Origin: Escherichia coli
GTDB taxonomy: Bacteria > Pseudomonadota > Gammaproteobacteria > Enterobacterales > Enterobacteriaceae
Length of the DNA stretch: 46,566 nt
NCBI RefSeq assembly: GCF_003334355.1
Contig: NZ_QOWP01000029.1
Direction: 5' to 3' (one strand)
Position 1 is the first letter of the stretch. The number at the start of each line of letters is the position of its first letter. Positions 3,001 through 6,000 of this stretch are shown here, in pieces. Position numbers: made by a program.

Positions 3001-6000
3001 GGTTTTATGCTCTTTTTCGTGATGCGGGCAATGGGGGAATTGCTGCTTTCGAATCTGGAATACAAATCTTTTAGTGACTTCGCTTCCGATTTACTCGGGC
3101 CGTGGGCAGGATATTTCACCGGCTGGACTTACTGGTTCTGCTGGGTTGTAACCGGTATGGCAGACGTGGTGGCGATCACGGCTTATGCTCAGTTCTGGTT
3201 CCCCGATCTCTCCGACTGGGTCGCCTCGCTGGCGGTGATAGTGCTGCTGCTGACGCTCAACCTTGCCACCGTGAAAATGTTCGGTGAGATGGAGTTCTGG
3301 TTTGCGATGATCAAAATCGTCGCCATCGTGTCGCTGATTGTCGTCGGCCTGGTCATGGTGGCGATGCACTTTCAGTCACCGACTGGTGTGGAAGCGTCAT
3401 TCGCGCATTTGTGGAACGATGGCGGCTGGTTCCCGAAAGGTTTAAGTGGCTTCTTTGCCGGATTCCAGATAGCGGTTTTCGCTTTCGTGGGGATTGAGCT
3501 GGTAGGTACAACAGCTGCGGAAACCAAAGATCCGGAGAAATCACTGCCACGCGCGATTAACTCCATTCCGATCCGTATCATTATGTTCTACGTCTTCGCG
3601 CTGATTGTGATTATGTCCGTGACGCCGTGGAGTTCGGTAGTCCCGGAGAAAAGCCCGTTTGTTGAACTGTTCGTGTTGGTGGGGCTGCCTGCTGCCGCAA
3701 GTGTGATCAACTTTGTGGTACTGACCTCTGCGGCGTCTTCCGCTAACAGCGGCGTCTTCTCTACCAGCCGTATGCTGTTTGGTCTGGCGCAGGAAGGTGT
3801 GGCACCGAAAGCGTTCGCTAAACTTTCTAAGCGCGCAGTACCAGCGAAAGGGCTGACCTTCTCCTGCATCTGCCTGCTCGGCGGTGTGGTGATGTTGTAT
3901 GTGAATCCTAGCGTGATTGGCGCGTTCACGATGATTACAACCGTTTCCGCGATTCTGTTTATGTTCGTCTGGACAATTATCCTTTGCTCGTACCTTGTGT
4001 ATCGCAAACAACGTCCTCATCTGCATGAGAAGTCGATCTACAAGATGCCGCTCGGCAAGCTGATGTGCTGGGTATGTATGGCGTTCTTTGTGTTCGTGGT
4101 CGTGTTGCTGACACTGGAAGATGACACTCGCCAGGCGCTGCTGGTCACTCCGCTGTGGTTTATCGCGCTGGGGCTGGGCTGGTTGTTTATTGGTAAGAAG
4201 CGGGCTGCTGAACTGCGGAAATAACCGCATTATCATGCTGGATGGCGCAATGCCATCCAGCTTTTAGATCACTCACCCGCCAGCGCGCGTGGGAACAGTA
4301 CATTGTTTTCCAGGCTGATGTGATCCATCAGGTCATCAATCAGTTCATTAATGCCGTTATACATCGCTTTCCAGGTGGTGCAGGCTTCCGGCGGCGGTGT
4401 GACGTTATTGGTGGTGTGTTTGATCACTTCCAGCAGTTCGCCCGCTTCATCGTGCTCGCTTTCCATTACGCTGATTGGCCCCATTGCCTGGCTGCCCATG
4501 CCTTGTTTGATCATCGGGAAGAGGATCTGCTCTTCTTTCATCATGTGGCTGGAAAGCTCTTCATGCAGCATAGTCAGGTATTTTGTCAGCCCTTTTGGCA
4601 CGCTCGGTTTGTCGGCGTGAACGCGCTCGACTTTAGTCGCTTGCAGAATCAGCTCCGGCAGTTGCTCGCGGTGACGATCGTGGTAGCGCACGATGATATG
4701 GTCGATGATTTCTGCCAGCGGGGCGCTACGCCAGTCTTTCTCAATCGGTTGTTCAGCGAGCTTTGCCAGTTCAGCTTCAATGACCTCAACATCCAGTTCT
4801 TTACGTGCCGCCGCACGCGCCAGCGTTTGCTTACCGCCGCAGCAGTAATCCATATCATATTTACGAAACAGAGCTGAAGCGCGAGGAATAGAGAGCGCCA
4901 GTTCACCTAAAGGTTGGTCGCGATAAGCCATAGCTGATACCTCATTCTTAATAAGATAAGATGTATTTTAAATGCATCTTTAAGGCAAAAGCTATAACCC
5001 TTACGTAGCAGAGACTTATTTAACTCACTGCCAGCGTGTCAACTTTCTGAGACAGATTCAGTTAAAGGTTTTTCTGGTTTTGCTCTGACCGCGATGACCA
5101 CGCCAATCACTAACAGCGCGATACCGCTCAGCGTCATTAGCGGCGGCATTTGCTGGCGGAGTAAAAAGGTGTACAGCAAACCTGCCAGCGTTTCGAAAAC
5201 AATCAGCGGCCCGAGAATCACTGTCGGTAATCGCTGGCTGGCGACGTTCCAGCAGAGTGCGCCAACCCATGAGCAAAGCACGGCTATCGCAATCATCAGA
5301 CTAATAAACACCAGCGGACGGGGGCCAAAGGGTAGGGAGAAGTCCGGCGTTTGCGTATTCAGCCAGTAACAAGCGACGAGATAGCCGATGAGAGAAACCG
5401 GCAGCGTGACCAGTGCCTGCGCCGTCGCCCACATCATTGGATGTTTGTCGGGATTTTCCCGCAGCCAGCGGGCGTTGCGCAGGGCATACCACGCCCAGCA
5501 GACCACGGAAACTAACGCCAGCACGATGCCAGAGGTATAACGTGCCCAGTCAAAATTGGGGAGTCCGTGGTTTAACTCAGCAATATTCACACACGCCAGG
5601 CCGATGCCAATACAAATCAGTGCCGGGGCGAGTTTTCCCCACGCGAGTTTGCCGTCGCGCTGGCTATAAAGCAGATTGGCGAAGACGGGAATGACCACCG
5701 GCAGGGTGCCGATAATCATCGTGGAAACAGGCGCGCCAGTACGTTGAATGGCACTGGCAAGGCAGAAGTAATAGATGAGGTTGCCCATCATAGTGAGCAT
5801 CAAGGCGGTAAGCCAGTCGCGACGCGCCAACTGACGCAGACGCACGCGTCCCAGCCAGGCAATGGGCAGCGCAATTAACCCTAACGCCAGATAACGCCCC
5901 ATCGACTGCAACATCGCCGGGTATTCCGGCACGATCAACGGCCCGACAAAAATAAGCCCCCACATCAACCCTGCTAACAGGGCGTACAGCACGCCGCTAA

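Follow-up and report, generated by a model that had tools for sequence, protein, structure and literature searches.

The inverted repeat upstream of ytfE in an Escherichia coli contig is the known NsrR operator in its K-12 allele

Introduction

NsrR is an Rrf2-family homodimer with an iron-sulfur cluster; it is bound to DNA when the cluster is intact and is released when nitric oxide (NO) attacks the cluster. Repressor titration by the Escherichia coli ytfE promoter was reportedly described by Bodenmiller and Spiro in 2006, and mutagenesis by Partridge and colleagues in 2009 is said to have shown that this promoter is fully repressed only with both 11-bp motifs intact. At the E. coli yeaR-yoaG promoter, activation by NarL is reportedly combined with repression by NsrR, as described by Lin, Bledsoe and Stewart in 2007. 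Here we analyze the region upstream of ytfE in a 46,566-nt stretch of E. coli DNA (contig NZ_QOWP01000029.1 of assembly GCF_003334355.1; hereafter the window), where an earlier note, made from the sequence alone, had proposed an NsrR-type palindrome. We found that this element is the already known reference NsrR operator, in the allele carried by K-12.

The published record of the ytfE operator runs from its prediction in 2005 through repressor titration, mutagenesis and chromatin immunoprecipitation read out on microarrays (ChIP-chip) and by sequencing (ChIP-seq), and its promoter serves as an NO biosensor. Rodionov et al. (2005; PMC1274295) predicted the site by comparative genomics and listed ytfE as the best E. 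coli NsrR site, with a 19-bp core, GATGCATTTAAAATaCATC, at –46 (their Table S2); the same paper carries a personal communication that the inverted repeat takes part in NsrR repression of ytfE. ChIP-seq by Mehta et al. (2015; PMC5320621) in strain CFT073 placed an NsrR peak in the ytfE-ytfF interval, its summit lying 50 bp 5′ of the start codon; the ytfE site was the first of 27 genomic 11-1-11 sites (ln P –25.13), its half-site, AAGATGCATTT, had a score of 10.92 (their Table 2), and nitrate raised ytfE 69.6-fold. According to a statement in that paper, ChIP-chip in K-12 likewise detected the ytfE promoter. In a Salmonella nsrR mutant, ytfE mRNA is up 544-fold (PMC2884951). In enterohemorrhagic E. 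coli (EHEC), a PytfE-tnpR fusion served as an NO biosensor; it showed no activity in the absence of NO and strong induction with the donor NOR-4 (PMC7336997).

Related to the ytfE operator are the NsrR operators of E. coli hcp, hmp, ygbA, yeaR and tehA, which share its 11-1-11 architecture and its AT-rich half-site family (PMC5320621). A crystal structure is available for the [4Fe-4S]-NsrR dimer of Streptomyces coelicolor on the 23-bp hmpA1 operator (PMC9338935). That system has the same protein family and the same operator length, and the dimer contacts both outer parts of the site (PMC9338935); however, the sequence of the hmpA1 operator, AACACGAATATCATCTACCAATT, differs from that of ytfE, and its central 7 bp have no base contacts and are freely changeable (PMC9338935), whereas the ytfE operator of enterobacteria varies hardly at all in its center. 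The element in the window carries little weight as a discovery; its practical value lies in the annotation of the ytfE regulatory region in this DNA. The minor new points that we report, namely how frequent the operator alleles are, that the spacer base is invariant and that a Nar-like block has decayed in Escherichia, are refinements of a known system.

Results

The palindrome upstream of ytfE is identical to the K-12 ytfE operator

We found that the sequence AAGATGTATTTTAAATGCATCTT has a single exact occurrence in the window, on the plus strand at 4958–4980; on the ytfE strand, the whole operator reads AAGATGCATTTAAAATACATCTT. In a repeat search, its two arms of 11 nt each, with 1 nt between them, were complementary at 10/11 positions (91%), and the sole mismatch is between operator positions 7 and 17 (window 4974 and 4964). 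Arms, spacer and half-sites all have the architecture of an E. coli-type 11-1-11 NsrR operator, and the operator ends 26 nt from the ytfE ATG (4931, minus strand). The element lies within 4932–5038, the range that had been flagged, which is the entire 107-nt ytfF-ytfE intergenic region (35.5% G+C), is bounded by the ytfF stop codon and contains the ytfE promoter. The near-perfect 11-1-11 repeat directly upstream of ytfE that the earlier note described is therefore present, but at a position 10 bases higher than the 4948–4970 given there.

Base for base, the operator is that of ytfE in K-12 MG1655, identical over 23 bp and at an equal distance from the ATG, although the strain background differs: the segment 4200–6100 is 100% identical to human E. 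coli isolates such as MCJCHV-1 and M1/5, and not to K-12. Across the 181-nt upstream stretch, there is one difference from K-12, at window position 5014, which is outside the operator. The CFT073 operator resembles that of the window in its position (it starts 27 nt from the ATG) and in its half-site AAGATGCATTT (PMC5320621). In contrast, operator position 17 on the ytfE strand (window 4964, where the plus strand has T) is A in the window and in K-12 and G in CFT073, and this G makes the CFT073 operator a perfect palindrome. A misprint in the CFT073 paper was considered as the source of that perfect palindrome and ruled out, since the CFT073 genome carries the real allele.

Position 17 is polymorphic in E. 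coli. The locus was found in 5,417/5,426 complete E. coli genomes, and with short exact-seed searches we found the A allele, as an exact 33-mer, in 3,903/5,426 genomes (~72%) and the rarer G allele in 930 (~17%). On the weight matrix described below, the CFT073 allele scores 31.7 bits and the window allele 31.0 bits, so that they are only 0.6 bit apart. The gene for the repressor, nsrR, lies outside the window; its annotated position in MCJCHV-1 is a purA-nsrR-rnr-rlmB cluster 32 kb from ytfE, which for the source strain of the window is indirect evidence. The DNA used in the EHEC biosensor can be placed on the same map: the PytfE primers fall on window 4921–4947 and 5082–5101, and the fusion DNA thus corresponds to window 4921–5101; because the EHEC plasmid is integrated at the native locus, these 181 bp alone are not proven sufficient.

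Two side observations concern the distribution of the locus. The intergenic single-nucleotide polymorphism at 5014 sets the window apart from K-12 and CFT073 alike. In the E. coli genome collection, there were also three matches to the chromosomal cycA-ytfE-ytfF-cpdB region on records labelled as plasmids; these replicons may be mis-assigned, or they may carry large chromosomal inserts.

The geometry of the repeat is by itself only mildly unusual; it is the sequence that goes far beyond chance, as the matrix scores below show. We counted 2 such 11-1-11 repeats (at least 10/11 pairs) in the window as compared to a mean of 0.33 in random windows of the same size generated with an order-1 Markov model. 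The other repeat, ACGGCTCCTGA-T-TCAGGAGCCGT at 11476–11498, has no mismatch; rich in GC, it begins 24 nt past the ytfK stop codon and looks like an ordinary terminator hairpin with no relation to NsrR.

The operator scores near the maximum of a ytfE-free NsrR weight matrix

We built a symmetrised weight matrix from the 11-1-11 sites that Mehta et al. (2015; PMC5320621) give in their Table 4; with ytfE removed and a duplicated entry counted once, 25 sites remained. The window operator scores 31.0 bits of a possible 31.8 and exceeds all 25 of the sites from which the matrix was built (12–27 bits); the runner-up position in the 46.5-kb window reaches 14.2 bits. When we scanned 200 random windows, the matrix maximum had a mean of 12.3 bits (standard deviation 2.1) and a highest value of 18.9 bits, and the AT-rich intergenic region, shuffled 20,000 times, gave at most 22.1 bits. 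The hcp, hmp, ygbA, yeaR and tehA operators are more degenerate, with 12–27 bits as compared to 31 bits for ytfE, and the ytfE site is in effect the consensus NsrR operator. The earlier note had named the NsrR position weight matrix as the comparison that could overturn its assignment; the score instead lies near the theoretical maximum, and the assignment to NsrR is borne out by this score on a matrix free of ytfE, by the identity with the K-12 ytfE operator and by the published NsrR occupancy. The NO induction of a ytfE reporter, which the note had named as a further check, is on record for the EHEC fusion (PMC7336997).

The second-best matrix match of the window (14.2 bits) lies in the promoter region of pyrL-pyrB (43665–43687 and 43779–43789, minus strand). 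Two copies of AAAATGCATAT, which is a good half-site on its own, occur there ~100 nt apart, 5′ of the pyrL leader. This match is probably due to chance, because 14.2 bits is within the range of the random windows.

We considered whether the palindrome could be the site of another regulator of ytfE, be it Fur, FNR, CRP, NarL/NarP or the Rrf2 paralogue IscR. The operator shares its AT-richness with Fur boxes, NsrR and IscR are members of one protein family, and according to a review, mutation of fnr or of fur de-represses ytfE (PMC9268430). However, the same review notes that neither a Fur nor an FNR site can be recognised in this promoter and presumes the effect to be indirect. Consensus matches at the palindrome are poor for Fur (10/19) and for IscR type 1 (14/25), the best FNR match (7/10) is inside the ytfE coding sequence, and the best CRP match (7/10) straddles the ytfF stop codon; by comparison, the palindrome is a near-ideal NsrR sequence and lies under the NsrR ChIP-seq peak (PMC5320621). 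We regard a site for any of these other regulators as very improbable. The NorR consensus was tried at the palindrome as well and is a poor match.

The operator is conserved across Enterobacteriaceae without co-variation of its arms

To follow the NsrR operator beyond E. coli, we collected orthologous loci by a scan with the YtfE protein, one genome per species, which gave 80 loci from ~20 enterobacterial genera with YtfE 90–99% identical; these 80 species loci and the window (81 sequences) were aligned with MAFFT. A site of 23.8–31.0 bits is present 24–27 nt 5′ of the ytfE ATG in 81/81 sequences. The operator is the most conserved stretch upstream of ytfE, with 1.80 bits per column, as compared to 0.58 in the distal intergenic region, 0.94 just upstream of the operator and 1.61 in the first 30 nt of the ytfE coding sequence. 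The per-position information of the published sites and that of the orthologues are weakly correlated (Spearman 0.39, p = 0.066), and we did not use this comparison as evidence.

The two arms of the operator do not co-vary. Perfect palindromes are found in 12/81 sequences, 47 have one mismatch and 19 have two, and the arm pair 4/20 is Watson-Crick in just 12/26 distinct operators. Relative to the perfect consensus, 46/48 substitutions introduce a base that at least 10% of the published NsrR sites also carry there. Two protein-recognition half-sites that drift independently would be expected to vary in this way, and a selected hairpin would not.

A hairpin in the nucleic acid, acting as a ytfF terminator or as a structured ytfE 5′ leader, would be compatible with the location of the repeat between two genes on the same strand, and the minimum-free-energy fold of the 107-nt intergenic RNA does pair both arms. 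However, this fold is unexceptional (z = –2.0; 7/200 shuffles fold as well), the stem is AT-rich, the 1-nt gap cannot form a loop and there is no U tract; moreover, most of the repeat would be untranscribed if the –10 hexamer proposed below is correct. A terminator scan of 4850–5150 on both strands found none, and Rfam showed no family in the intergenic region (whole window at gathering thresholds; 4800–5200 at E up to 1). Because the arms are not compensatory across the 81 species, a protein-binding site is favoured over a hairpin, which we find scarcely credible.

A chance AT-rich palindrome without function, of which ~0.33 would be expected per 46.5-kb random window and for which an intergenic region of only 35.5% G+C offers scope, is effectively excluded by a 31-bit match that none of the 200 random windows or of the 20,000 composition-matched shuffles attains and by the retention of operator position and sequence in 81/81 species while the flanks diverged, and it is likewise at odds with the published occupancy and regulation data (PMC5320621, PMC2884951, PMC7336997).

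NsrR at the operator would repress ytfE by promoter occlusion

Taken together, these data make it almost certain that 4958–4980 is the operator through which the NO-sensing repressor NsrR controls ytfE. What our analysis contributes is the sequence and position of the site, its identity with K-12, the near-maximal matrix match, the conservation and an nsrR gene annotated in a genome with an identical 4200–6100 region; the literature contributes in vivo occupancy, NsrR dependence and NO induction (PMC5320621, PMC2884951, PMC7336997). In the mechanism that we propose, each NsrR monomer would recognise one 11-bp half-site, AAGATGCATTT or its near-copy AAGATGTATTT, and the two half-sites would be read head to head with one base between them. 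NsrR with an intact cluster would sit on the operator and ytfE would be almost silent. NO would nitrosylate and degrade the cluster, NsrR would leave the DNA and strong ytfE transcription would follow; the induced gene would then supply the di-iron protein YtfE/RIC in nitrosative stress.

A putative sigma-70 –10 hexamer, TAAAAT, is found in the center of the operator and agrees with 5/6 positions of the –10 consensus. Across the 81 species, the hexamer is TAAAAT in 55, TAATAT in 24 and TATAAT in 2. The spacer base of the operator, which would be the critical second base of the hexamer, is A in 81/81, as compared to 0.01 bit of information at this position in the published NsrR sites. With this hexamer, transcription would start near 4956–4960, at the proximal edge of the operator; the operator would cover about –22 to +1, and NsrR bound to it would occlude RNA polymerase. 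We infer repression by promoter occlusion from two points: no other candidate for the –10 element is as plausible as the central TAAAAT, and the start would be at the edge of the operator. Another hexamer, TATAGC, lies at 4990–4995 within the conserved upstream block described below; with it, the operator would span about +3 to +25. It is less likely as a –10 element, since it has no final T and that block fits a Nar heptamer better.

None of our data speak against NsrR as the regulator; several points limit this account of ytfE control. The occlusion step depends on the inferred –10 hexamer, and the NsrR half-sites already account for most of its T and A bases, so that only the invariant spacer A independently supports a –10 element. 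A consensus promoter scan of 4850–5150 on both strands gave no promoter and no good –35, and in the accessible literature we found no mapped ytfE transcription start. The ChIP-seq occupancy was recorded on the CFT073 allele, with its different base at operator position 17. The conservation is that of a narrow group, as all 81 species are Enterobacteriaceae and their YtfE proteins are at least 90% identical.

An extension of the proposed mechanism, which we consider speculative and rather unlikely, is that the operator is dual-purpose, with its center doubling as the –10 element; operator and core promoter would then be evolutionarily locked to each other, and A or G at position 17 would give different NsrR affinities and different NO thresholds for ytfE.

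A Nar-like block upstream of the operator is degenerate in Escherichia

In addition to the operator, the alignment contains a second block upstream, which we compared to the NarL/NarP 7-2-7 consensus TACYYMT-NN-AKRRGTA. In the operator-anchored alignment, this block matches 10–13/14 specified positions in 76/81 sequences at a fixed register, and its consensus in other genera is TGCCCCT-AA-AGGGGTA. Its center is ~43–45 nt (43.5) 5′ of the inferred transcription start, and it lies ~14–29 nt 5′ of the operator in loci L006–L082. The Escherichia block is degenerate and shifted by 1 nt, and from this comparison the E. coli sequence at 4995–5010 is a remnant of a conserved candidate Nar-like block. 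Candidate NarP sites 5′ of enterobacterial dnrN/ytfE appear in Figure S2 of PMC1274295, and as far as that figure goes, we presume that they are the same block as 4995–5010. We found no Nar dependence of ytfE in the accessible literature.

A Nar-type block upstream and an NsrR operator over the core promoter is possibly a layout that most enterobacterial ytfE promoters share with yeaR-yoaG. Unlike at yeaR-yoaG, the Nar site of ytfE is a prediction only, and it is degenerate (10/14) in Escherichia.

We also observed a CRP-like YGTGA-N6-TCWC box in 37/81 ytfE upstream regions (Enterobacter, Citrobacter, Kluyvera and others); it is missing in E. coli. Where present, the box is placed ~45–60 nt 5′ of the operator, for example in locus L026 (~1898–1913) and in loci L008, L014 and L029.

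Genes and landmarks around the operator

The coordinates of the operator, its parts and the surrounding features are collected in Table 1. The ytfE open reading frame (ORF) matches the NCBIfam YtfE equivalog NF008221 with 416.7 bits (cut-off 254) over residues 1–219/220, and RefSeq annotates ytfE at equivalent coordinates in other strains. The earlier note had further taken the palindrome as confirmation of the strand and start assigned to ytfE. This support is weak, because a palindrome has no polarity and the operator alone does not establish either of them; both are secured independently by the end-to-end YtfE match, by the ATG at 4931, which is the first start codon of the ORF, by the conserved GAGG and by the fixed spacing between operator and ATG. 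For the upstream neighbour ytfF, the sole NCBIfam match, TIGR00950, has 39.2 bits, far under its cut-off of 230.2.

Table 1. Position of the ytfE operator and associated features in the window.
Feature	Coordinates	Strand	Description
NsrR operator of ytfE, 11-1-11 inverted repeat	4958–4980	.	plus strand AAGATGTATTT-T-AAATGCATCTT; ytfE strand AAGATGCATTT-A-AAATACATCTT
Promoter-distal half-site	4970–4980	–	AAGATGCATTT; same string as the ytfE half-site of the CFT073 study
Promoter-proximal half-site	4958–4968	+	AAGATGTATTT; T at 4964 is the only departure from a perfect palindrome
Inferred sigma-70 –10 hexamer	4965–4970	–	TAAAAT; operator positions 11–16, includes spacer base 4969
Degenerate NarL/NarP-like 7-2-7 block	4995–5010	–	TGCTACG-TA-AGGGTTA; 10/14 specified positions
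Shine-Dalgarno sequence	4940–4943	–	GAGG; 8 nt 5′ of the ytfE ATG; conserved ATGAGGTA block in the operator-anchored alignment
ytfE	4269–4931	–	RIC, di-iron iron-sulfur cluster repair protein, 220 aa; regulated gene
ytfF	5039–6013	–	DMT-family transporter; upstream neighbour, same strand; RefSeq annotation in other strains

An imperfect hairpin without a U tract is predicted by RNA folding right after the ytfF stop codon, at 5003–5037 on the minus strand, and could affect read-through from ytfF into ytfE. In the species loci, ytfF is the upstream neighbour in only 29/80, and because it is often not the neighbour in other genera, this hairpin is not conserved.

Other features of the window

Elsewhere in the window, we found matches at Rfam gathering thresholds to the small RNA ES239 (9445–9567), which adjoins the start of cpdB, to STnc450 (12919–12976) and ES036 (13056–13098), to two copies of naRNA4 (22082–22160 and 28323–28400) and to a magnesium riboswitch aptamer (38449–38564). 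All of these are known families, and none is near ytfE.

The cpdB gene (7564–9444, minus strand) is a pseudogene in the window: codon 91 is TGA instead of GGA, which places a stop at 9172–9174. It also carries an in-frame 63-nt deletion (K-12 coding-sequence nt 1111–1173, 21 codons; junction 8334/8335) that is flanked by imperfect direct repeats, CAGGACGATCCG and CAGGGCGATCCG. The deletion is shared by 0/5,426 complete E. coli genomes, where the best matches are all broken into two segments spanning 263 nt. RefSeq flags cpdB with an internal stop in the related strain MCJCHV-1. The same RefSeq flag is attached to ytfJ in MCJCHV-1; in the window, however, ytfJ (10364–10921, minus strand) is an intact ORF of 185 aa, which indicates that the window strain is different from, though closely related to, MCJCHV-1.

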